Positions 1 through 16,880 of a stretch of 54,096 nucleotides of DNA are shown piece by piece (the first letter of the stretch is position 1; each line of letters opens with the position of its first letter). Under the pieces are notes generated by a model that was given only the letters and a program-made list of their open reading frames with translations, had not been told where the DNA came from and ran no database searches. Source of the DNA: Methanosuratincolales archaeon (GTDB lineage: Archaea > Thermoproteota > Methanomethylicia > Methanomethylicales > Methanomethylicaceae). The position numbers were made by a program, and so were the translations under genes. The stretch lies in NCBI GenBank assembly GCA_014361445.1, contig JACIVQ010000003.1, positions 459 to 54,554 on the forward strand, given 5' to 3'.

Positions 1-903
1 TTAGCCACATATTTCCTCCAATGAATGCCACACGTTCATCAAATGAACTTGCTCCTTTGCATAAATGGTCCTTATGTGTGAGATCAGGTTTTCAAGTTCA
101 TCTCTACTAAGCTCTTTTTCAAGCTGGATCCACTCCCTTGCATACTTGTCTTTGGAATTTTTATCTTGGATGGCTTCAAGGTTTCTCCCTTTAATGATGT
201 CTATGGATGAGAGTGGGAGACCGCGCGTGTTCAAGATGTTGAAAAGTCTTATTGCGGATGACAAATCCGACGTTCGAATACCCACAACATAAACGTTGTT
301 TAATAAATATGTGATAAAATTATGGAGTTGTTCTTCCCCACTAAGCACTGAAAAGTGTTCAGCAAACAGCTCGTGAAATGTTTTGACTGCTTCGTAAAGA
401 TGATAAGCAGGATCATCCTCATCCTTAAGTTTACCTTTAAATTGCTTTAGAAATTCTATAGTTCCTCCTTCTACGTAAATATAATTATTAAAGTATGGCT
501 CTAATTCCTCCCAAGGCTTTAAGCGTTCAGTTTTTGGTAGTTTCAATAGCGGGTTTTCCTCTTGGAATAATATATTCTGTAGCGTGTTCTTGAATTTCTG
601 ATCTCGGATAAGGTCTCTTGCGACTGCGATCAGCGTTAACAGGGAAACTAACCTTTGTTGACCATCAATCACCTGATGCAACTTTTCTCTCTCATTAACT
701 AAAACCATTGAACCCAAAAAGTAAATTCCAGAACCCTTTGATTCAACCATAGACTCATAAATGTCTGTAAATAATTTCTCGAAACGTTCTTTATCCCAAC
801 TAAATGGGCGCTGAAATAATGGAATATTAAATGTGAACTCTTCACTTAAAATGTACTTAACTAAATAATGCTTTGCATCAATAGGAGCATTTAACTCAGA
901 CAT
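1..903 (-). CDS. DUF262 / ParB-like (GmrSD N-terminal type) nuclease-domain protein, 300 aa, complete; its stop codon is window bases 1-3
   Basis: Family signature VIDGQQRLVSL (DGQQR) preceded by FQRPFSW in the ORF-track protein. No DUF1524/HNH-like C-terminal half within the 300 aa. Hand-counted sample lines are 28-47 percent GC, below core genes. Confidence 0.7.
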   Translation of the reverse strand: MSELNAPIDAKHYLVKYILSEEFTFNIPLFQRPFSWDKERFEKLFTDIYESMVESKGSGIYFLGSMVLVNEREKLHQVIDGQQRLVSLLTLIAVARDLIRDQKFKNTLQNILFQEENPLLKLPKTERLKPWEELEPYFNNYIYVEGGTIEFLKQFKGKLKDEDDPAYHLYEAVKTFHELFAEHFSVLSGEEQLHNFITYLLNNVYVVGIRTSDLSSAIRLFNILNTRGLPLSSIDIIKGRNLEAIQDKNSKDKYAREWIQLEKELSRDELENLISHIRTIYAKEQVHLMNVWHSLEEICG

Positions 904-1067
904 ATATTACAATTGTTGATTTTTTCTTAAAAGTTTAACCTTACCAAGGCTCCCCGTGCTTTTGGAGATAACCAAGTCAATTTTAATTTCAATAAATTTA
1001 AGAACGCCAAAATTTGCTTCTTTTCCCAAAAGCAGGTAAATCTCATCATCAATCTTTATACATATTA

Positions 1068-1153
1068 CATATGAATATATGAAATTGTCATATGTTAAAA
1101 TTTGATTAATATATGAGATTATCTGATATTCATATGTTCATATTTCATATGTT
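1068..1153. repeat. Array of four CATATG cores: three exact 9-mers TCATATGTT (1088-1096, 1130-1138, 1145-1153) plus ACATATGAA (1067-1075)
   Basis: Read directly from the sequence. Core starts are 1068, 1089, 1131 and 1146, giving spacings of 21, 42 and 15 bp. The array lies in the 292-bp spacer between the wHTH gene end (1196) and the DUF262 start (903). Confidence 0.6.
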
Positions 1154-1195
1154 ACCGACAGGTATGTTATTATAAAAAATCGCCTTGATGCGGGA

Positions 1196-2230
1196 TCAGG
1201 TCGTTCTGGGTATCTTCTCTAAAAACTGAAGCAGGTCACTCCAAAACTCAAGGCTGTCTTTCTGTGGTATGTCTTCTATCGTCCATATTTCGGCAGGGTC
1301 GAGTTTTCTTGAATAGTAACGCCCTGGTAGGTTTTGTGCTTTCTTAAGAACCCTGATAATCTCACATATGAGATTGATTTGCCTTCTCAGATATGTGCGG
1401 TGATCCAACCAACCAAGCTTTAAAGCCTTGAACCATTCCTCAAACCTATCAGTCCGTATGACTTTTTCAGTCCTGCTCAGTTCTTGTTCTCCGAGTGAGA
1501 GTATAAAACCAAACCGCACCTGCTCGAGTCTTTCGAGGGCAGTGCTGATGGTAGTTTTTCTCTCTTCAAGGAACTTCAAGTTCTCTTCCTTATCTGGGAA
1601 TTCAGGATGTTTTTGTATACAGAACTTCAACCAACCATTCAGGTAATTAATTACTCGAAGTTTGGCTACTTCTTCAAGCTTTATTGCTTCCAGCCCATAA
1701 CCAAAATAAATGGTTAGGTCGTCTTGTAGGAGACTCTCTTCTGATTTACCCGAGTACTCGCTCAAACATGAAGAGCCTAACCAGACAAGTCGGGCACAAC
1801 ATTCTTGCATTTCGGTGTCCCACAATCCTTGCAGTTTGGTAGCGAAACACACCTCAACGATCTCTTTGAAAAGAGTTGCCACCTGGTCAGGATAATTCTC
1901 CAAATTCCAGTATAATATCGGGGGCTCTGGACCACCCAAGCATAAGTGCTCCTGTTCTAATATTGAAAGTAGTGTTCTGCGGGTATAGTTTTCAAGGTAC
2001 TCATGTGTTAGTTTGTAAACAATCCTCACAACCTTCCCTTCGCCCTCGAGTGTTTTTTTAATTAAGCCCTTTTTCATTAAGCTTCTAAGAGCGCAGGACA
2101 GGGTGCGCGGCTTCATACCAAGTTCACTTTTAATCTTGTTGAAATTCATCCCCCTGCCATTGTTTTGCATCAACAGGTTGAGGACTTTCTTCTGGGCTGA
2201 TGCATCCCTTCCCAATTTTTCCGACCTCAA
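1196..2230 (-). CDS. Winged-helix (MarR/ArsR-like) DNA-binding protein with a large alpha-helical C-terminal domain of unknown function, 344 aa
   Basis: N-terminus KKVLNLLMQNNGRGMNFNKIKSELGMKPRTLSCALRSLMKKGLIKK...VVRIVYKLT has the helix-turn-helix-wing pattern. TTG start at 2228-2230; the start is uncertain (internal ATGs at M21 and M28). Divergent from the cassette. Confidence 0.55.
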   Translation of the reverse strand: MRSEKLGRDASAQKKVLNLLMQNNGRGMNFNKIKSELGMKPRTLSCALRSLMKKGLIKKTLEGEGKVVRIVYKLTHEYLENYTRRTLLSILEQEHLCLGGPEPPILYWNLENYPDQVATLFKEIVEVCFATKLQGLWDTEMQECCARLVWLGSSCLSEYSGKSEESLLQDDLTIYFGYGLEAIKLEEVAKLRVINYLNGWLKFCIQKHPEFPDKEENLKFLEERKTTISTALERLEQVRFGFILSLGEQELSRTEKVIRTDRFEEWFKALKLGWLDHRTYLRRQINLICEIIRVLKKAQNLPGRYYSRKLDPAEIWTIEDIPQKDSLEFWSDLLQFLEKIPRTT

Positions 2231-2250
2231 TTTATATCTTGATATAAATT
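2229..2250. promoter_or_regulatory. Perfect 10+10 bp inverted repeat AATTTATATC-tt-GATATAAATT, followed by TATA-like ATATTTAAAT (2253-2262), in the 65-bp divergent promoter region
   Basis: Read directly from the sequence. Each arm contains TTTATAT (TATA-box-like) on its own strand. It sits between the wHTH gene start (2230) and the first cassette ORF (2296). Confidence 0.5.
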
Positions 2251-2295
2251 AGATATTTAAATGTTTATCCTGAAGATAATCTTAGGAGAAGGAAA

Positions 2296-2424
2296 ATGAA
2301 GGAGGACGAAAAGGAAGTTAGAATGAGTTTAGAAGAGTTCAGACTTTTCAGCGGAATGGTCGAAGAAGCACTATTGATCTTGGAAGGGAGACGAAAACGC
2401 AAAGGTGATGATGAAAATGTGTGA
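2296..2424 (+). CDS. Small ORF, 42 aa (MKEDEKEVRMSLEEFRLFSGMVEEALLILEGRRKRKGDDENV); below the ORF-track size cutoff
   Basis: ATG preceded by AGGAGAAGGAAA (SD-like). First ORF after the divergent promoter. Overlaps the next ORF by 17 nt. Confidence 0.3.
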   Translation: MKEDEKEVRMSLEEFRLFSGMVEEALLILEGRRKRKGDDENV

Positions 2425-2584
2425 ACTACCAAACTGCTTTGCATTGCATCAACCTAAACCACCAAACAAATGTGAGACCTGCCCAGTCGCTGACCTGTGT
2501 AAGGAACTCGTCCACAGGGATGAAGTCCTTAACCTGTTGAATCAAATCGAGAAAAAGATTGTCAGTGTGCTGACCAAAAGTTAG
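2408..2584 (+). CDS. Small Cys-rich ORF, 58 aa (MMKMCELPNCFALHQPKPPNKCETCPVADLCKEL...), possible zinc-binding mini-protein; below the ORF-track cutoff
   Basis: Hand translation. Cys spacing C-x4-C-x11-C-x2-C-x5-C. Ends 11 nt before the 2596 ORF. Confidence 0.35.
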   Translation: MMKMCELPNCFALHQPKPPNKCETCPVADLCKELVHRDEVLNLLNQIEKKIVSVLTKS

Positions 2585-2595
2585 GGTGAACACGC

Positions 2596-3459
2596 ATGAT
2601 CGACTTCATTACCGACTTTGGTAATTACTTAAAGACCCACTACCCGATACACCCACTGTGGGCGGACTTACTCTCGGCAACGACTCTGGCATCAGTGCTG
2701 ACCGAAGACACCTTCTTCCGCAACAATTTCGGTAGGAACAGGTGCAATCTCTGGATTGCCTACTTGGCTCCATCGGGCGACTTCAAATCCGTGCCGATTG
2801 ATGAATGTGTTATCCCCTTGTTGAGGTATTTGACTTCCTGGTATGCCAAAAACACTGGGCAACCCAGATACTTCATATTACCTTCAATCGCCTCATCAGT
2901 TGAAGGCATGATCAAACATCTTGCAGAGTTCAATTCGAGGGGGCTGATCTACCGAGACGAACTCACAACTCTCTTCAAGGAAAGCTTGCATAAGGACTAC
3001 CTCACCGATGAATTCGAGCTTTACAGTAAGTTTTACGACGGCATCATTCCACCACGGGAAACCATGAAGTTCAACCTCCGAGAGCCGCTCGAGGTATATG
3101 TTAATCTTGTGGGTGCGACTACCCCTCAACACCTCTACCACAACTTGAGCCTACAATTCTTCTTTCAGGGTTGTGGTAATCGTTGGCTCTACGTCAGGCA
3201 TCAAGTCCCAAAAAGGGCATACCAGGAAGAGGAGCTCTTTGTCCGTGACCCACCCAATTGGACGAAAGAGGAATTACCAACCGACCTGATGAAGTTTGCC
3301 GACGCGCTGATTGAAGCGTCAAAGACAGTTGTTGAGTTCACAATTGACCCAGAGGCAGAGAAAATCTCGACACACTTCTTCAACGAAAGAGAAGAGTTGA
3401 GATTTGAATTAATGAAAAGTACGAACCCCTTCATCGCCGAGTACGTTAGAAGGGACTGA
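2596..3459 (+). CDS. DUF3987-like (YfjI/primase-associated helicase-like) P-loop-type protein, N-terminal and core part, 287 aa; possibly the 5' part of a disrupted longer gene
   Basis: The layout recalls DUF3987: NLWIAYLAPSGDFKS (degenerate Walker A, GxxxxGKS becomes APSGDFKS), GLIYRDELTTLF (Walker-B-like DE), NLVGATTPQ, and GCGNRWLYV. It ends at an in-frame TGA (3457-3459), after which protein-like sequence continues in the same frame. Confidence 0.5.
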   Translation: MIDFITDFGNYLKTHYPIHPLWADLLSATTLASVLTEDTFFRNNFGRNRCNLWIAYLAPSGDFKSVPIDECVIPLLRYLTSWYAKNTGQPRYFILPSIASSVEGMIKHLAEFNSRGLIYRDELTTLFKESLHKDYLTDEFELYSKFYDGIIPPRETMKFNLREPLEVYVNLVGATTPQHLYHNLSLQFFFQGCGNRWLYVRHQVPKRAYQEEELFVRDPPNWTKEELPTDLMKFADALIEASKTVVEFTIDPEAEKISTHFFNEREELRFELMKSTNPFIAEYVRRD

Positions 3460-3620
3460 CAAAAAAGCCTCAAGCTTGCCCAGTTGAGGTGTCTGAGTCG
3501 AAACCTCTTCAACGAGCACTTCAAAGAACTCAAAATGATGATGATAGAACCTGAAGATGTCGAATGGGGTCAGGAAATCGTCAGAAAATGTTTTGAACAC
3601 TTTAACAAAATTGTTGGCGA

Positions 3621-3938
3621 ATGGGCGGCTACACCCCTGAACGAAAGCCGTCAGTCACGAAGACCCTGCAGGCAAGGATGCGGAGGTACCTCTCCATAAT
3701 AAAGTTCCACGGTATAATAAGTCAAACCCGCCTTGCCTACGAAGCAGGTGACAGCCGTGACGCCGTCTTTAGGGAGGTTATCGACAAACTCGCCGAAGCG
3801 GGCTGTATAAAGGTAATCACCAACAGCGCTGACTTTGTACGGATGAAAGGGCTCGATTGGATGAACCAACAAATGATAAGTCCGAATTTCAAGAAAGCTC
3901 CCGTTCTGTATGAGTTTATTAAGGACCTCCCACCATGA
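3621..3938 (+). CDS. Winged-helix-like small protein, 105 aa; possibly the frameshifted C-terminal tail of the DUF3987-like gene
   Basis: LQARMRRYLSIIKFHGIISQTRLAYEAGDSRDAVFREVIDKLAEAGCIKVI has a wHTH pattern like the C-termini of DUF3987-type proteins. This frame is open only from 3606. Confidence 0.4.
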   Translation: MGGYTPERKPSVTKTLQARMRRYLSIIKFHGIISQTRLAYEAGDSRDAVFREVIDKLAEAGCIKVITNSADFVRMKGLDWMNQQMISPNFKKAPVLYEFIKDLPP

Positions 3939-3954
3939 AGAGGTGTTTCCCGTG

Positions 3955-4194
3955 ATGTTATCGACCGTTCAGGACCAAAAATCTGTTGGTCGACCCCTTA
4001 TCCATGACTTCCTAAACAAAAGAGTCGTAGTGAAGACTTCCACCTTCACAGTAGAGGGCAGGCTCATCGCATATCAACCGTCCAACAAAGCCAAACGTAT
4101 CCCTGATTTGTTGTTCTTGAGAACGAGCGAAGGTATCCATGTCGTACGTGGTCCATGGACCATTATAAGCGAGGTGAAGAGAAAGCTATGCTGA
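3955..4194 (+). CDS. Small protein with an Sm/LSm-like motif pattern, 79 aa
   Basis: FLNKRVVVKTSTFTVEGRLIAYQ (Sm1-like) and LLFLRTSEGIHVVRGPWTIIS (Sm2-like xxRGxxI). ATG at 3955 lies 9 nt after GAGGTG. Confidence 0.4.
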   Translation: MLSTVQDQKSVGRPLIHDFLNKRVVVKTSTFTVEGRLIAYQPSNKAKRIPDLLFLRTSEGIHVVRGPWTIISEVKRKLC

Positions 4195-4394
4195 AGTCCA
4201 TTCTTTATGCATCGTTAAAGGCGCTCTTTCTCAGTGTGTGGGTTCTCTTGCTACGTCCTATTCTACAGCCTTCACTCAACGATTACTTCGGTAATGAGTT
4301 TTTGGGAAATTTTGTAGGCTTCTTCACCCTTTTCCTATCCGCGATTATAGTCACAGAAATACTCTGGTGGAGGAGGATGAGGACAAATGGATGA
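4188..4394 (+). CDS. Two-TM mini membrane protein, 68 aa
   Basis: Two hydrophobic helices (ALFLSVWVLLL... and FVGFFTLFLSAIIVTEILWWRR). ATG 4188 follows GGTGAAGAG and overlaps the upstream stop by 7 nt. Confidence 0.5.
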   Translation: MLKSILYASLKALFLSVWVLLLRPILQPSLNDYFGNEFLGNFVGFFTLFLSAIIVTEILWWRRMRTNG

Positions 4395-4590
4395 CTTACT
4401 CTTCCTCACCTTCTTGGGCGCCGTCCTTTTTGGTCACTATTTAGGGATGTATTTACGGGAGCAGGACGTCCTTGGGATGATATTGATCACAGCACTCTTC
4501 CTATCATTCTTGTTATGGATCCTTATCCTATGGCAAAGGAGGGACGCTGTCAAGGTTCAACCACAAGTTGTCTGGAGGGATGGGAAATGA
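4387..4590 (+). CDS. Two-TM mini membrane protein, 67 aa; likely a distant tandem paralog of 4188-4394
   Basis: Two hydrophobic helices, the second ending LWILILWQRR (compare TEILWWRR in the neighbour). 8-nt overlap with the upstream gene. Confidence 0.5.
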   Translation: MDDLLFLTFLGAVLFGHYLGMYLREQDVLGMILITALFLSFLLWILILWQRRDAVKVQPQVVWRDGK

Positions 4591-4715
4591 AGTATGAAGA
4601 ATACATGAAAAAATGGAAAGAATGGCAAAAACAACACAAAACGGCACCAGACGAGGCGTACCTCAAACAATGGAAGGAGTGGGAGAAAAAACACAGGAGG
4701 ATCAGGAATGACTGA
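4587..4715 (+). CDS. Lys/Trp-rich mini-protein, 42 aa, with an internal repeat (KKWKEWQKQHK / KQWKEWEKKHR)
   Basis: ATGA start/stop overlap with the upstream gene at 4587-4590. The repeat was read from the translation MKYEEYMKKWKEWQKQHKTAPDEAYLKQWKEWEKKHRRIRND. Confidence 0.4.
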   Translation: MKYEEYMKKWKEWQKQHKTAPDEAYLKQWKEWEKKHRRIRND

Positions 4716-4890
4716 GGAAGTCTCAATTCGAATCTTTGCCGACGACATAGAGGCTGTGAACAAGACCGTCGGAGCACTGAGAGGCATCTTCCCCAAGGTG
4801 TGGATCGAGAGCTACCAGCCCACTGAAAAAGGTTGGTCTGCAAATCTTTGGTGTTATATTGAAAGAGAGGAGGTGAGAAAAAGTGGGTGA
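4708..4890 (+). CDS. Small soluble protein, 60 aa, unknown family (paralog A)
   Basis: ORF-track entry. 8-nt overlap with the upstream ORF. About 45 percent identical by hand alignment to the next ORF. Confidence 0.55.
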   Translation: MTEEVSIRIFADDIEAVNKTVGALRGIFPKVWIESYQPTEKGWSANLWCYIEREEVRKSG

Positions 4891-5050
4891 AGTCCTTATC
4901 CAAATCTACGCGGGGAGCGCCGAAGATGCAGACAAAGCAGTCCAAGTACTCAAGCACTCTTTTCCGAAGACATGGATTGAAAAATACAAACCCTTCAGTG
5001 GCGGTTGGTTCGTCCGTCTCTGGTGTGAACTTAAGGAGGTGAAAGCATGA
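4883..5050 (+). CDS. Small soluble protein, 55 aa, GTG start (paralog B); not in the ORF track
   Basis: Hand translation VGEVLIQIYAGSAEDADKAVQVLKHSFPKTWIEKYKPFSGGWFVRLWCELKEVKA aligns with 4708-4890 (shared FPK.WIE.Y.P...GW...LWC). Preceded by GGAGGTGAG. ATGA overlap with the 5047 ORF. Confidence 0.55.
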   Translation: MGEVLIQIYAGSAEDADKAVQVLKHSFPKTWIEKYKPFSGGWFVRLWCELKEVKA

Positions 5051-5667
5051 GTGAAGAGGAAGAACTACAAGAGACATTAAGCCGAGCCGTCCGTGTGCAG
5101 GCAAAAGGGGACTTTGAGCAACTGCTCGCCAGTCAACTCGCTTCAGCACTCTTTCAAGACCCCTTGAACAAGATACGCATGGTCTTTGAGGCTTACCTAC
5201 TGCTCCCAGACGAAGATAAAGTCAAAGTCGTACCCGACGATAAAGAACACGAACGCATCTTCAGGCTTTATGAAGTAGCCATTGGCTTCAGTAACATCGT
5301 GATCGGTAGACCTCCTCCACATTACTTCGTGGAGTGTGCATCGGTACCCTTCCCATTCAGTTGGGTTGAAGGGGACAAGTACCTCGGTTTGTTTCTGAAT
5401 CGCAAGTGGGACCTCAAACACTACTTGGGCATTGAACCCGAAACTTGGGAAGGCTACCTACGGTGTTTTACGGCATATCTGATGGACGGATATGCACCCT
5501 TAAGCACGGTTAAAATGGTCGAAGAAGAGTTTGTCGTCTCTGCTATGCCTCTCGCACTCGACCTACTCAGGCGCATATTCAACAAGTTCATTACGAGAGA
5601 GACGTGGGTCGAGACTCTATCCATACTGCAGGGAAAGAAGAAGTCGGGTGTTGAGGTCTCACCATGA
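5047..5667 (+). CDS. Hypothetical protein, 206 aa, no recognisable family
   Basis: ORF-track entry, translationally coupled on both sides by ATGA overlaps at 5047-5050 and 5664-5667. Confidence 0.55.
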   Translation: MSEEEELQETLSRAVRVQAKGDFEQLLASQLASALFQDPLNKIRMVFEAYLLLPDEDKVKVVPDDKEHERIFRLYEVAIGFSNIVIGRPPPHYFVECASVPFPFSWVEGDKYLGLFLNRKWDLKHYLGIEPETWEGYLRCFTAYLMDGYAPLSTVKMVEEEFVVSAMPLALDLLRRIFNKFITRETWVETLSILQGKKKSGVEVSP

Positions 5668-6749
5668 AGATAGCTTGGCTTCACGGTAACATGAATGTAA
5701 GTCTCGACAAACCACTTGTATGGCTCTGTCTCGGAGTGAGGGGATCGGGGAAGTCGACCTTTCTCGAGCATGTAGCTCTACAGCACTTACAGCACGGTAA
5801 CACTATCCTCGACTTATTTGGCGCTCGTTCGGGTGAGGGTCTGGCTTGGCTCAGGAGTCCCGAGGTAAAGGGCAAGCACATCCTTTTGCTGACGGATGAA
5901 GGATGTATCATTGAAGTGAACAGCAGTTTAGACTTGAGTATAAAGCCATATACAAAACTCCAGCTCAAGGACTTTGAGGACTTTGACTTGATCATAAACT
6001 CCTCACCACTTTACAGGACGCTCGACAGCGAGTTCACAGCTTGCAACCATGTTATCGATCTACTCTGGAACAGGCTCCATTGGAGACGTTTGATTTACGT
6101 GATCATAAGGGAAGCCGCTAACCTGATCTACTCGAGGGTAAAGGTCTCTGAGAACCAACTTGAAGCCAAATCCTTTCTGATATATTGGTTGCGTGAAAGT
6201 CGTCATGTCGGTTGCTCTCTGGGGCTCGATAGTCAGAGGTTCATGGCGCTCGATACGGATGTGAGATCCCAAGTCGACTTCTTGGTATTGAAGGCACAGG
6301 GACTCTTTGGTTTGCCGAGGGATATGTGGCATGTTTACCGTTGGATCAAGCCAGGTTGGTTACAGTACGCCAAGCCCCACGAGTTTGCGATAGTGAGTAG
6401 ACAGGGAGACATCGGTGTTGGGACTTTCCCGTTTCACGAATGGCACAAACGCGAGGGCGAGGACATCCTCCAAGTCGCTGGTATCAAAGTCCAGTTCGAA
6501 GAGAGACCTGAAGAGGGTGCAGATAGGGGTCGTTACAAGACGGTCGGTGATGAAGAGCACGCCCGAATCATCAGTTTGTATACTGAAGAAGGAAAGAGTA
6601 TGGAGAGTATAGGCAAACAGTTGGGGAGGAGCGCAAAGACAGTCTACGACCACATTCACGAACACAACAATGACGTCGAGCGGTTGGGTTACTGTCCGAA
6701 ATGCCGAAGAGCCAGCAGTCCGTTAGCCGAGGTCAAAACTACACGCTGA
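5664..6749 (+). CDS. P-loop NTPase (FtsK/HerA/Zot/A32-like flavour) fused to a C-terminal helix-turn-helix and a CxxC element, 361 aa
   Basis: Walker A GVRGSGKST. Walker B candidates are HILLLTDEG or LIYVIIREAANL. ESRHVGCSLGLDSQRF resembles the (R/K)xG...xxQR segment of HerA/FtsK/Zot-type ATPases. C-terminus EEHARIISLYTEEGKSMESIGKQLGRSAKTVYDHI is an HTH, followed by GYCPKCRR. Confidence 0.6.
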   Translation: MKIAWLHGNMNVSLDKPLVWLCLGVRGSGKSTFLEHVALQHLQHGNTILDLFGARSGEGLAWLRSPEVKGKHILLLTDEGCIIEVNSSLDLSIKPYTKLQLKDFEDFDLIINSSPLYRTLDSEFTACNHVIDLLWNRLHWRRLIYVIIREAANLIYSRVKVSENQLEAKSFLIYWLRESRHVGCSLGLDSQRFMALDTDVRSQVDFLVLKAQGLFGLPRDMWHVYRWIKPGWLQYAKPHEFAIVSRQGDIGVGTFPFHEWHKREGEDILQVAGIKVQFEERPEEGADRGRYKTVGDEEHARIISLYTEEGKSMESIGKQLGRSAKTVYDHIHEHNNDVERLGYCPKCRRASSPLAEVKTTR

Positions 6750-6851
6750 GTTTAACGCTTTTTACATGAAATGATATAGGGTCTTTCGTGTAGAAACACA
6801 TGAACTTACCATCAAATATGAGTTGTGGTTAATTCGTTCCAGACCGTAGGC

Positions 6852-9698
6852 TCAACCTATCATCCATGAGTCAAGCCGTTTAGAAGGTTCAGCATGTTTT
6901 AGCCGTTCTTTCTTTGTTTTCTTTATGGGCTTCCACTTCTCAGCAGTCTCAACTAATATATCAACTTCTTTTCTTTGAAGTCGCATCCTTCTAAGAGACT
7001 CTAAACCTTCATAAACTTGCTTACGTTCTGTTTCACTTAATCCCAATACATCAAAAACAGCATTGTCAAGTTCTCTTCGCGCTTCTTGCTCTAACTTTTC
7101 ATCACCCTTATTCTGAGCCTCACAAATCTTTAAGAAAGCAACCTCAATTTTCTTTCTTTCTTCCTTCGAGAGTTTTTCTGGGTTTAAGACGGGAAGGTTT
7201 TTGCTTTCATAGACTGTAAGTTCAAGAACCCCTCCACCATAAAAACGTCCATGTAGTTCTGATAGAAAAGCTGTTACTGAAGAGTTTAGTAACCCTGCAA
7301 GAACTATTATATTTTCTTTGGAGTTAGGGTGCACTTCGTAAAAGCATTGATGTGCATATGCATTTGCTTTATTTAATGAATATACACATTGTTCCCACAT
7401 TTTACGAGCAAATAGTATGGGAGCGGGTTTTCTTTCACCTAAATCATACCATCTTTTTCTTGATATAAGCGTAGAGAGGTTGTTATATCCTTTTACTAAG
7501 CTTCCCCCTCTCCTTCCTCCTCTTATTCTTATTTCGATGTTTTCTCCATGTTCAATGTATTTTAATGCCTTAGCGTCTTCTTTCTTAAGGTCTTCTTTAT
7601 CTATGTGAACCATAAACACCCATTGGTTGATGTCGTCTGACTTAATTTCAACTCCTATATTTTGAGGACTTGTTACAACAGGTTTCAGATATTTATCTTC
7701 TATACCCCAAAGCTTTACTTTTTCTTTATCAAGATAAAAGAATTCGTCCGCACCTGTCGTAAATCCTCGCCTAATTTCAGCGATTTCTCCAAGTTTAACC
7801 ATCTTAGGATGTTGTTTTAGTTTGAAGTATATTATCGGACTCCTTAGAAATAATCCCCATTTTTCTTCTGGTTTGAGTTCTTTTTGTTTCTTTAGTGTTA
7901 TTCCTACACGCTCGTTTTCAAAATCTTCTTTGGCTGTTTCAATTATTCTGACTATTTCTTGTATAGGAATGGGTTGCTTTATTCTAACAAACTTGACGGT
8001 ATTGTTTTCTTTAGCTTCTTTAGATTCATCCTCTTTTTCCAAAATGGTTATGCACGTTCCTACCAAGGCTCTTTCAAAGGCTCTAACATCATACCAGATT
8101 ATTGCATGAATCTTGAAGTGGTCAAGAAAGAACCGTTTCACGCCTTCCCCGTAACCTACATCAAGCCAAGTATCAGATGTTATTTGACCCATCATACCGT
8201 GATTCTTGAGAAATTTTGCACTATGAGTAAAGAAATAAGTATAGATTCCCGCTTGAGCACTAATGTCAATCTTTGAACCGTCTGAGTAGGTTAAGGCTTC
8301 CTCTCTAATCTTGTCTTTATATTCCATCTCTTCCTGTCTTGTATAGGGTGGATTGGTTACTACAACGTCAACTAGTGGGATTATATCGTCTGAGGGCTTA
8401 ACCTTAAAGAAATCACTCACAATTAGGTTGATATGTTTACTTGGCACCTTAAGATTTCTAATAGCTAAGTTTATACTGGACAACTGTGCTGGAAATGGGT
8501 TTATGTCTATACCGTATAGCTGGCTCAAAATCTCTTCATGTAGCCTATTTTCATCAGCAAATGGATTCTCCTTCTTCTTCAAATCCTTAAGCTTATGATA
8601 GGCTTTAACGAGGAAACTTCCACTTCCACAAGCAGGGTCAAGAACTTTATCTTTTGGTGACTTGATGCACATCTCAGTTATTAGCTCAACTATGGGCGGT
8701 GGAGTATAATATTGTCCAAGTCTATGTCTTTCAAAGTCTGGGATGAGCTCTTCATAAACCCTACCTATAATGTCGCTTCTTATTTTGGCTAAGTTGTATG
8801 TTCCAAGCTCTTCAATGAACTCTTCCAAAGCATACATTAGTTTCTTAGAGAACGGTATCTCATCCAAAATTGGATGATGCTCAAAAATAGCTTCATAATC
8901 AACCTCTTTAGACACTCTGCTAAAGTACTCCGATAACTTTTGAGAGAAAACATTAGGGTCTTCTGTTTCAATTTTCTTCAGTTTTGGGATCGTTAGTATT
9001 TGTGCTTCTAATGTCTTGTAGAAGGTAAGCCTATTCATTAACATATAAGCCAATTGTTCAGCTATACGTTCATTCATTTCTGGAGAGTATTCGAAAAGCT
9101 GAGACTTAAGCCATGAAATGTACTTTTCCTTAAACCCTAAATCCTCATTTAGCTTATGAGTTAATGATTCCAAAATAAAGGGGGTTATGAAGTTATGAAA
9201 TGTTCTAAGTCTTTGTAGGAATACATCATCAAGCTCAAGCCATTTTCCTACACCAATCCTAAATCGACACACTTCTTCAAGTAGTGTCTTAGCAAACTCC
9301 TCATCAAACGAAACTTTGTAATGCTTAAGCCTTCTCTGGGGTAAGGGCACTCCAGCAGTAAAGGTGTCAAATAGAACAAACACTTCACCATTGCAGGTGG
9401 CAAAATAAGGAGCACCCAATTCAACAGCATAATTTGACGCTTGTCTAATAACATCAATACTATAGGGGTCAAACTTTCTATCAATAAAAGGAACCTTACG
9501 CTTAGTCTCAATTACCAACAATGAAATCTTCTTACCTTTTTCAATAGCTTCAACAACCAAGTCTGGTCTACCATTAATAGTGGGCTCAAACCTAACGCCA
9601 ACAAATTCAATATCGTTATAAGAGAACTTCTTGGCAATAAGATTTTGAAGAACGCGATAAAGCTCAACTTGAATGTTTCTCTCAAGCATCGAAATCAA
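6852..9698 (-). CDS. Type IIG (single-chain R-M-S, Eco57I/MmeI-like) restriction endonuclease / N6-adenine DNA methyltransferase, 948 aa
   Basis: N-terminal PD-(D/E)xK: GRPDLVV...LLVIETKRK. Methyltransferase motifs GQYYTPPPIV, VLDPACGSGSFLV (motif I) and VVVTNPPYTRQ (motif IV, NPPY). Long C-terminal specificity-like region. Sampled lines are about 33-35 percent GC. Confidence 0.8.
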   Translation of the reverse strand: MISMLERNIQVELYRVLQNLIAKKFSYNDIEFVGVRFEPTINGRPDLVVEAIEKGKKISLLVIETKRKVPFIDRKFDPYSIDVIRQASNYAVELGAPYFATCNGEVFVLFDTFTAGVPLPQRRLKHYKVSFDEEFAKTLLEEVCRFRIGVGKWLELDDVFLQRLRTFHNFITPFILESLTHKLNEDLGFKEKYISWLKSQLFEYSPEMNERIAEQLAYMLMNRLTFYKTLEAQILTIPKLKKIETEDPNVFSQKLSEYFSRVSKEVDYEAIFEHHPILDEIPFSKKLMYALEEFIEELGTYNLAKIRSDIIGRVYEELIPDFERHRLGQYYTPPPIVELITEMCIKSPKDKVLDPACGSGSFLVKAYHKLKDLKKKENPFADENRLHEEILSQLYGIDINPFPAQLSSINLAIRNLKVPSKHINLIVSDFFKVKPSDDIIPLVDVVVTNPPYTRQEEMEYKDKIREEALTYSDGSKIDISAQAGIYTYFFTHSAKFLKNHGMMGQITSDTWLDVGYGEGVKRFFLDHFKIHAIIWYDVRAFERALVGTCITILEKEDESKEAKENNTVKFVRIKQPIPIQEIVRIIETAKEDFENERVGITLKKQKELKPEEKWGLFLRSPIIYFKLKQHPKMVKLGEIAEIRRGFTTGADEFFYLDKEKVKLWGIEDKYLKPVVTSPQNIGVEIKSDDINQWVFMVHIDKEDLKKEDAKALKYIEHGENIEIRIRGGRRGGSLVKGYNNLSTLISRKRWYDLGERKPAPILFARKMWEQCVYSLNKANAYAHQCFYEVHPNSKENIIVLAGLLNSSVTAFLSELHGRFYGGGVLELTVYESKNLPVLNPEKLSKEERKKIEVAFLKICEAQNKGDEKLEQEARRELDNAVFDVLGLSETERKQVYEGLESLRRMRLQRKEVDILVETAEKWKPIKKTKKERLKHAEPSKRLDSWMIG

Positions 9699-9965
9699 CC
9701 TTATCTCGAACTTGAATAATCTCTATTCTTTTTCTAATAAAAGCTATGATGGCGGGTCAAAAGGTTAATATTTAATCATTTATTTATTTTGTATGTATGC
9801 TTCTCTCTTAAATGTAAAATGGGGGTTTCTATAAATGTTTACATTAAATTTTACCAATTTTTCACGAGTCTACACTCAACCAAATTAGAATTTAATTTTT
9901 ATGGGCAATATTTCATACCCGGATATGGTAATTTAGAGCGAATTGAGCGCTTTTATCATTTTTTA

Positions 9966-12011
9966 TTATGTTGTGGGATAGTTGATCTTGTAGATCAATA
10001 CCCACAAGTTATTGGAAGTGTAAACCAGTTCGAAGTGCTGTGGAGCGGTTATGTTCAATTTAAGCACAGAGCTGTACCCATCTCTGAATGGGTAGAAGAG
10101 GAGTTGGTACAAGAGAGTGTCAGAGGCCTTTGGTCCGGCCGGCAGCGGGTAATTTATCGTAGATGTTCCAGTACTTAGAGAGACGCCCCTAATGTAATCG
10201 GATGTATTATATCCAGCAATGGCCATCATTGCTGTGGACTTCTCAAAGTCCCCAATGACTGACCACGGCGGCAGCCCTATGAGGGGATCCGTTGACGCAA
10301 AGATCCATGGCTCGTATACGACTACATAATCCACCCTCATCTTTCTAAATATCTCTAGGGCATACGTCTCGTTGTTTAAGAATGCCTCAGCGATCAGTTT
10401 TATCTGAGTTCCATTTGTTGTCGAGTTGTCAGCTATGACTGATTTATTTGCGACCACGTTTATCCAGTAACCGTAATCCCACCAACACCCCACTATGCTC
10501 TCTGGAGGGATGTTGATGCGCATCCATTCCAAGGCATCCAACCAGTCATCAATCTCTGCAGCATAGCCAGTAGAGGACGACACAATCATGGCAGGTCTGT
10601 TTGCAGCTCTCAAATTTGTGTATATTAGAGGGGTTGTGCCTGCCACTATTATTGCAATCACAATAATGCCATAAAGTCGCCCTAGCTGGCGCGCGTGGGT
10701 TTTTTTGTCCCCCTCAATCTTCTTGGTTAAAGAGATGTTGTTGAAGAGATTAGTAAGGGCCAAGCCGCTGAGTATGGCCAGGGCAGGTGCGACAACTATC
10801 AATAGTCGTACATAATTCCCTGCGCCCCAAAGAGCCATCAGTGCAAAAAGCACAATGAATATGTCCTTGTACTTCATGCGACTCAGGGCAAAGTACACGC
10901 CAACCGGTGCCAAGATTATGAGGAGGTGGTAATTTGTGAAGAAGGTCGACCAGGTGGCAGGGAACTGCTCGCCAACAGTCCCGACTATGGGTGAGCCCGC
11001 ACGCGAGAATGGGTTGACGAATAAAAGGAATTTCCCTGCTATAGGACCAAGCACGCCACTCAGCGTAATAGCGCCTGCTATAACTAGTATTCCAAGGACT
11101 GCCCCTATGGAGGTTTTCCTTCGTAGATCCTTGTCTTGGATGAATGATGTTGCAGACATAACAACACATACTATGAAGGCGGTCATGGGAACAACAGTAT
11201 AGGGGGAGATAGCCTCATCGACACCAATGTTCGGGGCAAATGCCATTCCTAACATAGTGATTGATGAAACGACTGTAACGGCTATGGACAGCTGCTTGCT
11301 CCACCTTCCTGTTAAGACTAGTATGATGGAGTATAATGCCAATAGGTTTAGTGGGTAGAGGTAGGCACCCCAACAGAGTGTCATGTAAGCGAGTGCCAGG
11401 CCAGATATTATCGAATAGGGAATGGTCCTTTTTTTCAGCGCTTTCATGAAAAATATCAGCGCTATTAGCATGCCAAGCAGTCCGGTTGCTTCAGTATCGA
11501 AGAAGCCGAGGCTAGTACGTTGTATAGAGGTTGGGTCAATAGCAAATATTAAGGATGCAAAGAGACCGACACCTCGACTCACTAGCTCTTTTCCTAGGAG
11601 GAAGACCAGGAAGGTAAGTATGCCTCCGGAAATGACAGGAAAGAATGCTAGGGCTTCATAAAGGGTAATGTTAAAACCTAGAGATTTTAGCAAGAGGTAG
11701 AATGCGGCGCCTGTGAATGGCACACCCATTTGTGCCTGAGAGGGGACGTCAGTCCCCCAAGGAGCCCATCTTGTTGGATCGAACCAAGAGAACCAAGCGG
11801 TAAAGCCGTTCTCAACCACATATTTTGCACCCTTGTACTGGATGTAAGGGTCGAACTCATCCAAGTACACCCCCCACTGAATCGGGAGGAGACGGATAGC
11901 CACTGATAGGGCGATTATGGATACGAGTGTGGCATAAACAAGAATGTCAGTCTTTGTGATACTCGTCCGCGATGGTAAACTTATGCGCATAATTGTACCT
12001 CTACAAGACAA
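9966..12011 (-). CDS. aglB: Archaeal oligosaccharyltransferase AglB (STT3 family)
   Basis: Multi-TM N-terminal domain and the catalytic WWDYGYW motif (CWWDYGYWINV). The start may be the internal MRISLP. Confidence 0.85.
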   Translation of the reverse strand: MSCRGTIMRISLPSRTSITKTDILVYATLVSIIALSVAIRLLPIQWGVYLDEFDPYIQYKGAKYVVENGFTAWFSWFDPTRWAPWGTDVPSQAQMGVPFTGAAFYLLLKSLGFNITLYEALAFFPVISGGILTFLVFLLGKELVSRGVGLFASLIFAIDPTSIQRTSLGFFDTEATGLLGMLIALIFFMKALKKRTIPYSIISGLALAYMTLCWGAYLYPLNLLALYSIILVLTGRWSKQLSIAVTVVSSITMLGMAFAPNIGVDEAISPYTVVPMTAFIVCVVMSATSFIQDKDLRRKTSIGAVLGILVIAGAITLSGVLGPIAGKFLLFVNPFSRAGSPIVGTVGEQFPATWSTFFTNYHLLIILAPVGVYFALSRMKYKDIFIVLFALMALWGAGNYVRLLIVVAPALAILSGLALTNLFNNISLTKKIEGDKKTHARQLGRLYGIIVIAIIVAGTTPLIYTNLRAANRPAMIVSSSTGYAAEIDDWLDALEWMRINIPPESIVGCWWDYGYWINVVANKSVIADNSTTNGTQIKLIAEAFLNNETYALEIFRKMRVDYVVVYEPWIFASTDPLIGLPPWSVIGDFEKSTAMMAIAGYNTSDYIRGVSLSTGTSTINYPLPAGPKASDTLLYQLLFYPFRDGYSSVLKLNITAPQHFELVYTSNNLWVLIYKINYPTT

Positions 12012-12099
12012 AATTCTTTCTGAAGAGAAACATTTAAACCCTATGGTTGAATTAGGAAACTTTAATGTCGGACCTTAATGATAATGCTGGTGATGACAC

Positions 12100-15000
12100 A
12101 TGAGTGTGATCGGTGAGATCCCAAAGGAATATGATGCAAAAAGTTTTGAGAAGGAGATATTCGAGTTCTGGGAGAAGGAAAGAGTCCCAGAAAAAGCTAG
12201 ACTGAAGGGTAATGAGAAGTTTTACTTTCTTGATGGTCCACCTTATGTGACAAACCCGATTCATGTTGGGACGGCTTGGAATAAATCCCTAAAGGACGCC
12301 TATATAAGGTACTTCAAGATGAGGGGCTACCTTGTGAGGGACCAGCCCGGTTTCGATATGCACGGGCTACCGATTGAGGTTATGGTCGAAAAGAAGCTGG
12401 GCATAAAGACAAAAAAAGAGATCGAGGCACTGGGGATAGAGAATTTCGTTAATGCTTGCAAGAATTTCGCGTTGGAAAATCTGAAGGTGGCGACCTCCCA
12501 GTTCCAAAATCTGGGCGTCTGGATGGATTGGGAGAGACCTTACAGGACTCTGGACAACAGTTACATCGAGTCAGTCTGGTGGCTCATAAAGAGGGCGAAT
12601 GAGAGAGGGTTGTTGGAAAAAGGAAATAAAATAGTCCACTGGTGCCCCAGATGCGAGACTGTACTGGCAGGCTATGAAGCTACAGATGAATATAGAGAGA
12701 TCGAGGACGATTCAATTTATGTGAAGTTCAGGATCGAAGGTAGGGAAAAGGAGTACATCGTGATATGGACAACCACGCCATGGACCCTGCCCGCAAACGT
12801 AGCAGTCATGGTAAACCCAGATTTCATGTATGCCAAGGTAAAGGTCGGGGACGAGACATACATAGTAGCAGAGGATAGGATAGCAGCAGTATTCGGGGAA
12901 GAGAAGTATGAAGTTGTTGAGAGAGTCCCGGGGAGCAAATTAAGCGGCCTGAGGTATGTCCCCCCGCTCCTCGATGAAGTCCCTAAGCAAAAAGAGCTCT
13001 CCCCGGCGCACTTTGTCGTTCTTAGCGACCTGTACGTTTCTCTTGAAGAAGGAACAGGTTGTGTACACACCGCCCCTGGGCATGGTGAAGAGGATCACGA
13101 GGTGGGCGAGGTCTATGGGCTGCCAGACTTTTGCCCGGTCGACGAAAGGGGAAGGTTCACTGTGGATGGCGGAAAATATGCCGGCAAGGATGTGAGAGAA
13201 TCTAACAGGGAGATCATTGAGGACCTAAGGAAGAAGGGATTGTTGCTTAAGATGGAGAGGACGAGGCACAGATACCCACACTGCTGGAGGTGCAAGACTC
13301 CACTAATATTGAGGCTTGCGACTCAATGGTTCATAAAGGTCACCGAGATAAAGGAGAGGATGCTTGAGGAGAACGAAAAAGTTGACTGGGTGCCTGAGTG
13401 GGCAGGCAAGGCAAGGTTCGGAAACTGGATAAAGAATGCAAAGGACTGGGTCATCTCTAGGCAAAGGTATTGGGGGGTCCCGCTACCGATATGGGTCTGC
13501 AGCAAGTGTGGAAGGTATGATGTTATAGGTTCGCTTTCAGAACTCAAGGAGAAAGCTCTTAGTAAAATTGGAGATATTGACCTTCATAGACCTTGGGTGG
13601 ACTATATAAAGATAAGGTGCACGTGCGGGCATGAGATGGAAAGGGTGAACGATGTTGCAGACGTTTGGATGGATTCAGGTTCTGCATCATTCGCTTCGCT
13701 CCATTACCCATCAGAGCCGAAGGAGTGGGAGAAGTGGTGGCCGGTGGACATGATACTAGAAGGTCACGACCAGACGAGGGGCTGGTTCTATACCTTAATG
13801 GTTTGCGGGATAATCGCCTTTGACTCCGTACCGTACAAGAGGGTTCTGATGCACGGGTTCACGATAGACCAAGACGGAAGGGCGATGCACAAGTCCCTCG
13901 GGAATGTCGTATATCCTGAGGAGGTTATAGAGAAATATGGAAGAGACACGCTGAGATGGTATGAGCTAGGGTGTACTACTTGGGAGGATCTGAAATTCAC
14001 TTGGAAGAGTGTGGAAGAGACCTCAAGGTTCATGGGAATACTTTGGAGCACTTATTACTTTGCGAGCCTATACATGAGCCTTGACAAGTTTTCTCCCGAG
14101 AAGTACAGCATTGATAAGGTCTCTGGTTGGCTCAAGGATGAAGACAGATGGGTTCTTTCGAGGCTGGAGCGCCTCATAAAGAATGTGACGGAGTCGATGA
14201 ATGGACTACGAGTCTTTGAGGCGGTCAGAGAACTAGAGTACTTTATGAAAGAGGAGTTGAGCAGATGGTACATCAAGCTTATTAGGAAGAGGACTTGGAC
14301 CGAGACCGAAGACCCTGAAAAGATAGCAGCCTACGCCACGCTCTACGAGGTTTTGTTCAATTATCTCAAGATGATCGCGCCAATAGCTCCCTTCGTCTCA
14401 GAGAAAATATACCAAGGGATGTTCAGAAAAAGGACCGAGATGCCAATAAGCGTTCATATGCTCGAGTGGCCATCCTCTGACAGGGGATGGCGCGACGCCG
14501 AACTCGAAGGCGATATGGAGATAGTGAAGGAGATCATAGAGGCTTCTTATAGCGCAAGGCAAGCAGCCAGAATAAAGACGAGGCAACCTTTGATGAAGCT
14601 GAGGGTTGTCTCCAAAGAAGGATCCGTAATAAGGGCGATCTCGAGATTAAAGAAGATAGTTCTTGACCAAGCAAATGTAAAAGAAGTCGAGGTCATATCG
14701 CCAGAGGAAGAGGAAAAAATGAAGGAGATCAAGCTAGTAGCCAACCCCTCAGTCATAGGACCAATTTTTAGAGGGAAGACAAAGATTGTGGCTGAGAGGA
14801 TAGAGGCAATGGATGGCAAGGAGGTTTTGAGAAGTCTGAAGGAGGGCAAAACAGTGATTTTCGAGGTCGATGGCGAAAAGTTTGAGCTTAAGAAGGAATA
14901 TGTGACGGTTCAAGAGAGTGTGCCTGAGAATTACAAAGGAGCGAGTTGCAGGTTTGGCATGGTCTACATTGACACGACGAAAGACAAGGATTTGATAGCT

Positions 15001-15264: not shown

Positions 15265-15315
15265 CATCTACAGCGATCACTTTGAATGGTAGAGAAAGGA
15301 AGGAGCAGAATATAA

Positions 15316-16443: not shown

Positions 16444-16475
16444 CAAGGTCTGATACTGAAACTTGAGCGCAAGTC

Positions 16476-16880
16476 CTAAAGTTCTCGGATATAGTTTGCG
16501 TATTCTTCGGGAGTCATCAGAGATTCCGTTCCGCCTTCAATATTTACCTTGACCAACCAACCTTCGCCGTAGGGATCTTTGTTTATAAGCTCTGGTTTAT
16601 CTAGCAATGCAGAGTTGACCTCAACAACGGTGCAGTCAACAGGAGTGTATACCTCCGCAACAGCCTTTATGGACTCTAATGTGCATAGGATGTCTCCTTT
16701 TTTGAATTTTGAGCCGACCTTTGGGAGCTCGGCATATACCAGATCGTGAAGGTTCCGTTGCGCATAATCGCTGATCCCAATTCTAGCAGGGGATTCTTTT
16801 ACTGCGATCCATTCATGGGTCTTGGAGTACATAAAATCGGTGCTTATGACGTTCTCGCCGACCTTAATATAGGAAGACAT
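16476..16880 (-). CDS. gcvH: Glycine cleavage system H protein (lipoyl carrier)
   Basis: YSKTHEWIAV..., lipoyl-lysine motif LESIKAVAEVYTP, and DPYGEGWL. The ORF is open to 16922, but the ATG at 16880 gives the typical ~134 aa. Confidence 0.85.
   Translation of the reverse strand: MSSYIKVGENVISTDFMYSKTHEWIAVKESPARIGISDYAQRNLHDLVYAELPKVGSKFKKGDILCTLESIKAVAEVYTPVDCTVVEVNSALLDKPELINKDPYGEGWLVKVNIEGGTESLMTPEEYANYIREL

Follow-up and report, generated by a model that had tools for sequence, protein, structure and literature searches.

The window analysed here is the whole stretch of 54,096 nucleotides (nt) taken from contig JACIVQ010000003.1 (positions 459 to 54,554) of the Methanosuratincolales archaeon assembly GCA_014361445.1. 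Near its left end, at 1196-6749, lies a cassette of mostly small genes. It contains a replication gene (Rep), a gene for a 206-amino acid (aa) protein, here named F1, and a gene for a P-loop ATPase fused to a helix-turn-helix (HTH) domain. The cassette is likely to represent the central part of a small, temperate mobile element (probably viral or plasmid in nature), now at an early stage of decay in a Candidatus Methanomethylicia chromosome. An earlier, sequence-only reading had listed the open reading frames (ORFs) of this region, and all of them were recovered at the same positions. The features of the cassette are as follows.

1196..2230, minus strand: divergent regulator of 344 aa, with an N-terminal winged HTH (wHTH, residues ~11-85) and a C-terminal domain.
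2229..2295, no strand: divergent promoter/operator region, with palindromes, TATA-like boxes and a Shine-Dalgarno (SD)-like motif.
2296..2424, plus strand: o42, an ORF of 42 aa, the first gene of the operon, with an SD-like motif upstream.
2408..2584, plus strand: o59, a Cys-rich protein of 58 aa, which has a jackhmmer family and a weak EndIII 4Fe-4S-like Cys motif.
2596..3938, plus strand: Rep pseudogene, a predicted DUF3987-type P-loop replication helicase of ~447 aa with a C-terminal wHTH (Pfam, tblastn).
3955..4194, plus strand: sm79, a soluble protein of 79 aa with one homologue, in the related locus L022.
4188..4394, plus strand: tmA, a membrane protein of 68 aa, with a hydrophobic segment, a loop of ~20 aa, a second hydrophobic segment and the basic tail WWRRMRTNG.
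4387..4590, plus strand: tmB, a membrane protein of 67 aa, which has two hydrophobic segments and ends in a basic tail.
4587..4715, plus strand: kw42, a highly charged ORF of 42 aa with an internal KxWKEWxKxH repeat.
4708-4890 and 4883-5050, plus strand: p60 and p55, tandem mini-proteins that are paralogues.
5047..5667, plus strand: F1 (o206), 206 aa, mainly alpha-helical, the conserved partner gene of the ATPase.
5664..6749, plus strand: FtsK/HerA-superfamily P-loop ATPase of 361 aa, predicted to be of the small A32/B204 viral-packaging type (AlphaFold2 model, Foldseek, 339 homologues).

As previously described, the eleven genes between 2296 and 6749 are all on the plus strand, and eight of their junctions overlap, by 4-17 nt. 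The overlaps are 17 nt for o42/o59, 7 nt for sm79/tmA, and 8 nt each for tmA/tmB, kw42/p60 and p60/p55; ATGA junctions join tmB to kw42, p55 to F1, and F1 to the ATPase gene. The GAGGTG spacer reported between 3938 and 3955 is also present. A GGAG, GAGG, AGGT or GGTG tetramer was found at -15 to -4 of 10 of the 11 starts; over the window as a whole, 17% of ATG/GTG positions have one (binomial P ~2e-7). These SD-like motifs suggest that the small ORFs are more than chance, and the tiny ORFs are very probably translated genes. The sequence-only reading had further placed a divergent wHTH regulator across a 65-bp palindromic promoter; the regulator and a perfect inverted repeat were both found. 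The repeat has two arms of 10 nt (AATTTATATC-TT-GATATAAATT, 2229-2250), with a TATA-like box on either strand. A second TATA-like palindrome lies at 2250-2267, and the SD-like GGAGAAGGA precedes the ATG at 2296. No additional copies of the AATTTATATC/GATATAAATT half-site were found within the cassette. The wHTH of the regulator gave Pfam matches of the HTH_34, MarR and RPA_C types (E 1e-4 to 1e-3). Its C-terminal domain is shared with the corresponding gene of L007, an intact relative (3760-4224; tblastn, 28% identity over 162 aa; jackhmmer, E 6e-57).

The replication gene had been read as coding for a DUF3987-like protein with a wHTH tail. The family and the tail were borne out; the gene is not intact, and carries an in-frame TGA and a frameshift. 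The ORF at 2596-3459 matched DUF3987 (PF13148) in Pfam with E 6.5e-9 (35.9 bits, cut-off 27), and PHROG "DNA primase" families with E 2e-7. An exhaustive HMMER search identified 218 Rep homologues, the full-length ones being 420-470 aa. Residues 1-287 of the query align with residues 1 to ~290 of the full-length homologues, and G65, K68, D122 and E123 are invariant among the homologues. The tblastn alignments of the three best homologues (P0126, P0127 and P0129) run through the stop and then change frame, giving one gene at 2596-3938. The first lesion is a TGG to TGA change at 3457-3459, at the consensus Trp of the homologues' R-x-W-Q-K motif. The second is a 1-nt frameshift at ~3625-3632, between the EW codons (3619-3624) and TPER. 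The sequence of the frameshift region is the same in an independent Logan contig, L001. The ATG at 3621 is not preceded by an SD-like motif. Recoding of TGA as Trp was considered and rejected; it is unlikely because ten cassette ORFs use TGA as their ordinary stop, and the frameshift follows 170 nt downstream. The predicted replication helicase gene is a pseudogene; with Rep dead, the element would no longer be able to replicate by itself. The tblastn search of GenBank phages and PLSDB plasmids with the full-length homologue P0126 gave nothing significant.

The last gene was correctly described as a P-loop ATPase fused to an HTH, with the core at residues 1 to ~285 and the HTH at ~290-340. The C-terminal HTH matched HTH_38 in 28 of 40 family members, and is followed by a CxxC motif (C344, C347). 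The Hadarchaeia and Nitrososphaerota members lack this HTH/CxxC tail. The invariant residues of the family alignment are G24, G27, G29, K30, S31, R149, E150, R180, H181, D189, R192, C344 and C347. The AlphaFold2 model, built from an alignment of 40 family members, had a mean predicted local distance difference test score (pLDDT) of 88.8. It has a RecA-like P-loop core of the B204/A32 fold, and the N-terminal HAS-barrel of HerA is missing. The Foldseek search of the PDB ranked B204 of STIV/STIV2 at the top (E 5.6e-8), followed by TcpA and HerA proteins, which include the HerA proteins of the Sir2-HerA and DUF4297-HerA defence complexes. In BFVD, the packaging ATPase of halovirus PH1 was at the top (E 7e-8), followed by many A32-like ATPases, with Zot/pI lower. 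The target-normalised template modelling score was 0.62-0.63 for both B204 and the PH1 ATPase. On this model, the ATPase is closest to the viral-packaging FtsK/HerA type with an A32/B204-like fold, and its gene appears intact.

Sequence searches with the ATPase gave little. There was no membership of a Pfam or PHROG ATPase family at E <1e-3, the PDB HMM search found solely P-loop matches to FtsY, and hhalign against the PH1 ATPase aligned the Walker A motif only. A tblastn search of GenBank phages and PLSDB plasmids gave nothing significant. No transmembrane (TM) or pore domain was predicted in the ATPase.

F1 had been taken as an orphan of 206 aa, which does not hold; it was detected in 25 of 36 related loci. 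In 21 of these 25, the end of F1 lies at most 35 nt from the start of the ATPase gene. F1 had no match in Pfam, PDB or PHROG, and searches with the single sequence or with a 15-member alignment found almost nothing; no relatives outside the family are detectable. No nuclease, Sir2 or TIR signature was found in F1. The AlphaFold2 model, built from 4 sequences, is all-helical with pLDDT 62; the fold search with this low-confidence model gave no match, which is uninformative. Longer proteins in three related loci (L012, L014 and L020) were considered as F1-like and rejected, as they matched PHROG primases and had no profile similarity to F1. From these matches, they would be part of the replication module.

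The small genes mostly fit their earlier description. Two ORFs of less than 60 aa, one of them Cys-rich, are present (42 and 58 aa). The two tandem mini-proteins tmA and tmB have two hydrophobic segments each, and p60 and p55 are paralogous, with 46% identity over 54 aa (E 3e-11). The Sm-like assignment of the protein at 3955-4194 was unsupported; its top Pfam match was DUF2642, at E 0.14. The label of orphan stands for o42, tmA, tmB, kw42, p60 and p55, with zero homologues found; it fails for the ATPase (339 homologues), Rep (218), F1 (25 loci) and the Cys-rich ORF (6 loci). The Cys-rich family was found in L007, L008, L009, L014, L123 and L003 (jackhmmer, E 5e-26 to 2e-9), and in these relatives the ORF lies directly 5' of the replication gene, irrespective of the Rep type. 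The GC content had been sampled as 52-58 percent and called host-like. The measured values are lower, 0.41-0.50 per gene, and are indeed host-like (host 0.456).

The homologues of the ATPase (n=339, 45-62% identity) are nearly all unnamed. They mark 29 loci in species-representative genomes, mostly of Bathyarchaeia, and also of Hadarchaeia, Nitrososphaerota, Desulfurococcales and Culexmicrobium (Culexarchaeia). At least 14 related loci contain a tyrosine integrase, including 10 distinct loci of an integrase cluster together with L022, L118 and L123. The replication proteins are exchangeable across the relatives, and include PrimPol, PrimPol-MCM, D5/DUF5906 helicase, PriS/PriL-like and DUF3987 types. 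In at least 8 elements, the gene directly 5' of F1 codes for a basic-tailed protein of 46-81 aa that has one or two TM segments. Such TM proteins in L003, L007, L008, L009, L028, L118 and L121 have a tmA-like layout and no sequence similarity to it. L007 has the gene order of the window: integrase at the left end, regulator on the minus strand, Cys-rich ORF, Rep, TM protein, F1 and ATPase. In L003, the order is circularly permuted and the integrase lies at the right end. The minimal element L008, of ~6.5 kb, consists of small ORFs, Rep, TM protein, F1, ATPase and integrase. By comparison of these loci, the family set comprises a tyrosine integrase, a divergent wHTH regulator that faces a palindromic promoter, a Cys-rich protein and Rep, variable tiny genes, and a constant terminal module. 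The constant module is one or two basic-tailed membrane proteins of 46-81 aa, then F1, then the FtsK/HerA-type ATPase.

The 116 neighbour proteins of 24 loci, searched with Pfam, include integrases, replication proteins, HTH regulators, one beta-helix protein and one methylase. The beta-helix protein is in L123, an 11.3-kb contig that contains element genes only; it has a Tat signal, lies just upstream of F1 (5478-7910 for the region), and has weak matches to tail-spike PHROGs. A protein of 288 aa comes next; it has a signal peptide and, at its C-terminus, a TM anchor, and its tail is very basic. The two proteins stand where other elements have the small TM protein, and are a candidate adhesin and a candidate structural protein. 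L118 contains a 781-aa protein with a signal peptide. In L121, a 294-aa protein between Rep and F1 (8076-8960) matched PHROG 6247 ("DNA topoisomerase") with E 1.5e-62, which is the only strong link of any family element to proteins of sequenced viruses.

The ATPase gene is split by frameshifts in L021 (9656-10765), L030 (10001-10811), L031 (10001-11022) and L032 (2092-2881), so decay is common in the family, and decayed copies are often found in variable regions. In L031, a tRNA-Ser gene lies immediately downstream of the ATPase gene; in L030, a tRNA-Gly gene lies upstream and a methylase-like gene downstream. These two decayed copies are the only ones with a tRNA gene nearby. Two short contigs assigned to bacterial metagenome-assembled genomes (MAGs), L017 (Clostridiales, 2.3 kb) and L023 (Nitrospirota, 3.7 kb), contain the archaeal F1/ATPase module; a binning error, rather than a bacterial host, is the most likely explanation.

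The locus itself differs between close relatives. The metagenome contigs L041 and L058 are ~90% identical to 9883-17500 of the window, and are mutually collinear over 16.9 kb. The blastn similarity of both to the window ends at 9883/9882. In both contigs, AglB is followed directly by eIF2-alpha, Gins51, PriS, PriL, PCNA and more housekeeping genes to L10e. The right-hand breakpoint is given here as a feature.

9880..9886, no strand: right-hand insertion breakpoint, ~84 nt past the AglB stop codon (9966), from the alignment across the breakpoint.

Since window 1-9882 is missing from contigs that are ~90% identical, the alignments identify this block, with the GmrSD fragment, the cassette and the type IIG gene, as a strain-specific insertion of at least 9.9 kb. 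The comparison of synteny that had been suggested for close relatives thus found a presence/absence difference at 1-9882. The gene string is not conserved at this locus in all relatives; L041 and L058 lack the block. The left end of the insertion is outside the window. The host IleRS and NAD kinase (window 12100-16443) fall in >=90% clusters with MAG proteins of Candidatus Methanomethylicia/Methanomethylicaceae (Verstraetearchaeota). The host is a member of Methanomethylicia, whereas most of the element relatives are from Bathyarchaeia. A bathyarchaeial host, which the ATPase relatives had suggested, was rejected on the clustering of these host proteins.

The sequence-only reading had proposed an integrated, decaying element like a virus or a plasmid. 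Three results agree with it: the block is absent from ~90% identical relatives, intact relatives contain both integrase and Rep, and the Rep of the window is a pseudogene. Only Rep is broken. The regulator, F1, the ATPase and every one of the small genes remain intact and have their start signals, which fits a recent inactivation. In the proposed cycle, the regulator facing the palindromic promoter would control the operon, and after excision Rep would replicate the circle. The small membrane proteins and F1 may hold the ATPase at the membrane, where the ATPase might recognise the element's own DNA through its C-terminal HTH. It may then pump the DNA out of the cytoplasm, into a membrane-associated virion or to another cell. 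The virion proposed would be spindle-, pleomorphic- or filament-like, with non-lytic release.

Several results weigh against a decaying mobile element of this kind, or leave room for other functions. In agreement with the earlier reading, neither an integrase nor a capsid gene could be seen in the window, and att repeats were likewise missing. The insertion extends beyond the window on the left, so the absence of an integrase is unproven. Capsid, portal, terminase, spike, VirB4, relaxase, and pilus or conjugation genes were not recognised among the 116 neighbours of 24 loci or in the PHROG scans. The scan of IMG/VR with the ATPase profile found no relative, and no circular overlap signatures were found in 40 loci. 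No convincing att repeats were found between 880-1230 and 6700-6900, nor within 1-12100, the left junction being outside the window; neither att repeats nor tRNA targets were found in the relatives checked (L003, L007, L008, L019 and L028), and there is no tRNA gene at the insertion site. F1 has no known fold. In the ATPase, the position of the Walker B Asp seems to hold an invariant Arg (R149-E150), which is unusual for FtsK/HerA ATPases, and its chemistry is assumed. The fold matches to TcpA and HerA are just 1-2 orders of magnitude weaker than that to B204, so the model would fit DNA pumping in either direction. Finally, two lesions placed randomly in the coding DNA would both hit Rep with P ~0.07, which is a weak hint that leaves room for partial domestication or a retained function.

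Comparison with known systems showed partial similarities. The ATPases B204 and PH1 are like the element ATPase in their small size and the lack of a HAS-barrel, and rank first among the structural matches to residues 1 to ~285. In PH1, a gene for a 63-aa TM protein is directly upstream of the ATPase gene. However, there is no sequence similarity past Walker A, and the element ATPase adds the C-terminal HTH and CxxC. A similar motor is TraB of the actinomycete integrative and conjugative elements (AICEs). TraB is a single FtsK-like motor that recognises clt via a C-terminal wHTH, in a small element with int, rep and regulator genes. The element ATPase might be analogous, as a single FtsK-like motor with a C-terminal HTH. 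However, TraB is bacterial and has membrane-association and pore-forming regions that are missing here, and no clt-like repeat was identified in the element.

The closest architectural analogues are the spindle-shaped viruses (His1 of the Halspiviridae, and the Asgard wyrdviruses). In the wyrdviruses, one or two proteins of ~80 aa, each with a pair of hydrophobic segments, form the coat; their TM-less AAA+ ATPase is most similar to pI of filamentous phages, small conserved genes adjoin it, and the replication modules are exchangeable (10.1101/2021.07.29.453957). In His1, ORF16 codes for a P-loop ATPase that has an HTH at its C-terminus, a 79-aa two-TM protein precedes it, and the coat protein VP21 has the layout of tmA: TM, loop, TM and basic tail. 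No alignment was obtained between tmA or tmB and VP21. The hhalign comparison of the ATPase family with ORF16 was weak (E 0.023, 2% probability) and collinear over 150 columns, and hmmsearch was negative. The differences are the lack of an adhesin in the window, the size of the elements (~7-11 kb, compared with 14-16 kb), and the Rep types (helicase or PrimPol, compared with pPolB or HUH).

The two most conserved genes of the Pleolipoviridae are the ORF7-like gene and the ATPase gene that follows it (PMC10599561). These viruses (VP3, VP4 spike, ORF6, ORF7 and ATPase VP8) are also small and temperate, with mosaic replication genes and membrane proteins upstream. However, the window contains no spike-like ORF, and no PHROG match was found. 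No similarity was found between the ATPase profile and HRPV-1 VP8, or between the F1 profile and HRPV-1 ORF7 or PH1 ORF15/16 (hhalign for HRPV-1). The inoviruses (Tubulavirales) follow a similar logic, with a pI ATPase and tiny TM coat proteins (10.1101/548222). They differ in that Pfam Zot matched 2 of 40 members at E 0.025, and Zot structures ranked below A32-like ones; the element ATPase has no C-terminal TM domain, and its Rep is of helicase rather than rolling-circle type. The similarities to the spindle-shaped viruses, inoviruses and pleolipoviruses are all below demonstrable homology, so the element is not assigned to these families.

Cryptic integrated elements were defined for Thaumarchaeota as a class without a signature gene, some of them with restriction-modification genes (PMC6563490). 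Like the element family, they are small, with an integrase, a Rep of the mobile-element type, mostly unidentified genes, short or undetectable att sites, and no virion or conjugation genes. Unlike them, the element family has a signature, the TM-F1-ATPase module. The family belongs with the cryptic integrated elements and small temperate archaeal viruses in kind, and has a distinctive hallmark module; the copy in the window is itself an ordinary decaying remnant in a variable island.

One possibility, less likely than not, is that the elements with TM protein, F1 and ATPase-HTH are an unrecognised lineage of non-lytic viruses of Methanomethylicia, Bathyarchaeia and neighbouring Thermoproteota. 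If so, their virions would be made from tiny basic-tailed membrane proteins, and an A32/B204-type FtsK/HerA motor, reading the DNA through its HTH, would load the genome without a jelly-roll capsid, to which this ATPase class has so far been tied. Such a lineage could connect, in evolution, the Varidnaviria packaging ATPases with the extrusion ATPases of pI type in spindle-shaped and filamentous viruses.

A capsid-less integrative plasmid, in which the membrane-anchored F1 and the ATPase-HTH move double-stranded DNA between cells or load vesicles, is a rather unlikely alternative. Minimal relatives of the L008 type have no space for a capsid module, zero structural virus genes were found among the 116 neighbours, and the family is missing from IMG/VR. 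Among the PDB fold matches, the coupling protein TcpA ranks fifth (E 1.6e-6), and the ATPase has its own sequence-reading HTH. However, the top fold matches are small viral packaging ATPases, and the ATPase has no TM or pore domain. The same 116 neighbours of 24 loci include no VirB4, relaxase or pilus genes, and secreted or anchored proteins typical of adhesins are found in some relatives (the L123 beta-helix protein and the 781-aa protein of L118). The tiny basic-tailed membrane proteins with two segments would also suit the coats of spindle-shaped or filamentous viruses (10.1101/2021.07.29.453957; 10.1101/548222).

It is unlikely that the element is a helper-dependent satellite with no capsid of its own, whose ATPase-HTH would steer the element's DNA into particles made by another virus in the same cell. 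The very small size of the elements (6.5-11 kb) and the lack of recognised capsid genes would fit, and a DNA-recognising ATPase of packaging type is what a capsid hijacker needs. However, no helper virus could be named, and the elements have no gene in common with a known virus, while the known archaeal satellites of the pSSVx/pSSVi type share genes with their helpers. Moreover, the small membrane proteins may be coat proteins themselves.

It is very improbable that F1 and the HerA-like ATPase are a two-gene anti-virus system, carried as cargo of a mobile element in a defence island with GmrSD and type IIG genes: HerA-family ATPases do pair with effectors in Sir2-HerA, DUF4297-HerA and TdpAB and appear among the fold matches, two defence genes flank the cassette, and a dead Rep stands beside an intact F1 and ATPase, but no signature of a nuclease, Sir2 or TIR was found in F1, the ATPase is without the N-terminal HAS-barrel and has the size of an A32-like packaging enzyme, a membrane protein is attached upstream of the pair, and the pair stays constant while the replication genes vary, which is the behaviour of a core module and not of cargo. 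The PADLOC matches of F1 and the ATPase were P-loop/HTH fragments only, with E above 1e-4. The undescribed multi-gene defence system that the sequence-only reading had offered as its second explanation fared no better, as the PADLOC matches were weak and limited to wHTH/HTH and P-loop stretches. This explanation is unsupported; the conserved pair also accompanies integrase and Rep in minimal elements such as L008, where there is no space for cargo.

FtsK-like packaging ATPases were earlier reported only with jelly-roll capsids (PMC4158269). No jelly-roll major capsid gene was found beside the ATPase gene in the 24 loci, F1 being all-helical at low confidence. A hallmark packaging-type ATPase without such a capsid gene runs counter to the earlier report, and suggests a new virion type or DNA-transfer mechanism. 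A survey of Bathyarchaeia viruses described head-tailed and rod-shaped viruses, together with a single fusello-like virus whose AAA+ ATPase is of the ATV type; none of these is of the TM-F1-ATPase family (PMC10541130). Literature searches found no description of this family, which is apparently widespread and undescribed. Methanomethylicia and Bathyarchaeia are abundant and mostly uncultured archaea, with few viruses or plasmids known. The cassette might therefore be useful as a handle on a family with hundreds of metagenome members, outside Pfam, PHROG, IMG/VR, GenBank phage and PLSDB. Intact members of 7-11 kb with integrase and replicon could give vector backbones for these hard-to-manipulate lineages.

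The cassette is flanked by two defence genes, as previously reported: a GmrSD_N/DUF262 gene and an Eco57I/MmeI-type IIG restriction-methylase gene, each with a GC content of 0.37. These and the intervening spacer are listed below.

1..903, minus strand: left flank, the N-terminal half of a GmrSD/DUF262-type restriction gene, truncated by the window start (Pfam GmrSD_N, E 9.7e-31).
1067..1154, no strand: AT-rich spacer separating the GmrSD start from the regulator stop, with iteron-like repeats.
6852..9698, minus strand: right flank, type IIG restriction-modification enzyme of 948 aa (Pfam N6_Mtase, E 4e-36).

In PADLOC, the left flank matched Orf5/HEC-06/SspE-type profiles with E down to 4e-50, at profile positions 2-288 of 574. 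The type IIG gene also matched Eco57I, MmeI_Mtase and M_Eco57I_C in Pfam, and REase_MTase_IIG in PADLOC (E 2.5e-40); it is located within the strain-specific insertion. The GmrSD gene, though inside the same insertion, probably has an origin separate from the cassette. As the restriction genes are much lower in GC than the cassette, the island is probably composite. In the Rfam scan of the window, the sole match was a tRNA-Leu at 45827. No CRISPR arrays were found in the window or in 1.57 Mb of related loci.

The spacer contains TCATATGTT three times within 66 bp (1088, 1130 and 1145), and the whole window has 4 copies, compared with 0.5 expected. It also contains a 32-nt imperfect inverted repeat (1067-1098/1106-1137). 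The spacer could be an origin, iteron or binding site of the element, or the promoter/control region of GmrSD. An exact 17-nt direct repeat, TCGACACACTTCTTCAA, was found at 3367-3383 in the Rep pseudogene and at 9264-9280 in the type IIG gene, with a rough chance expectation of ~0.004 within 12 kb. The element of L003 (9160-15916; JGI Ga0078972_1000174) is inserted between L10e and a SpoU methylase gene. This site is the far end of the conserved AglB...PriS-PriL-PCNA...L10e cluster, which the island of the window adjoins.

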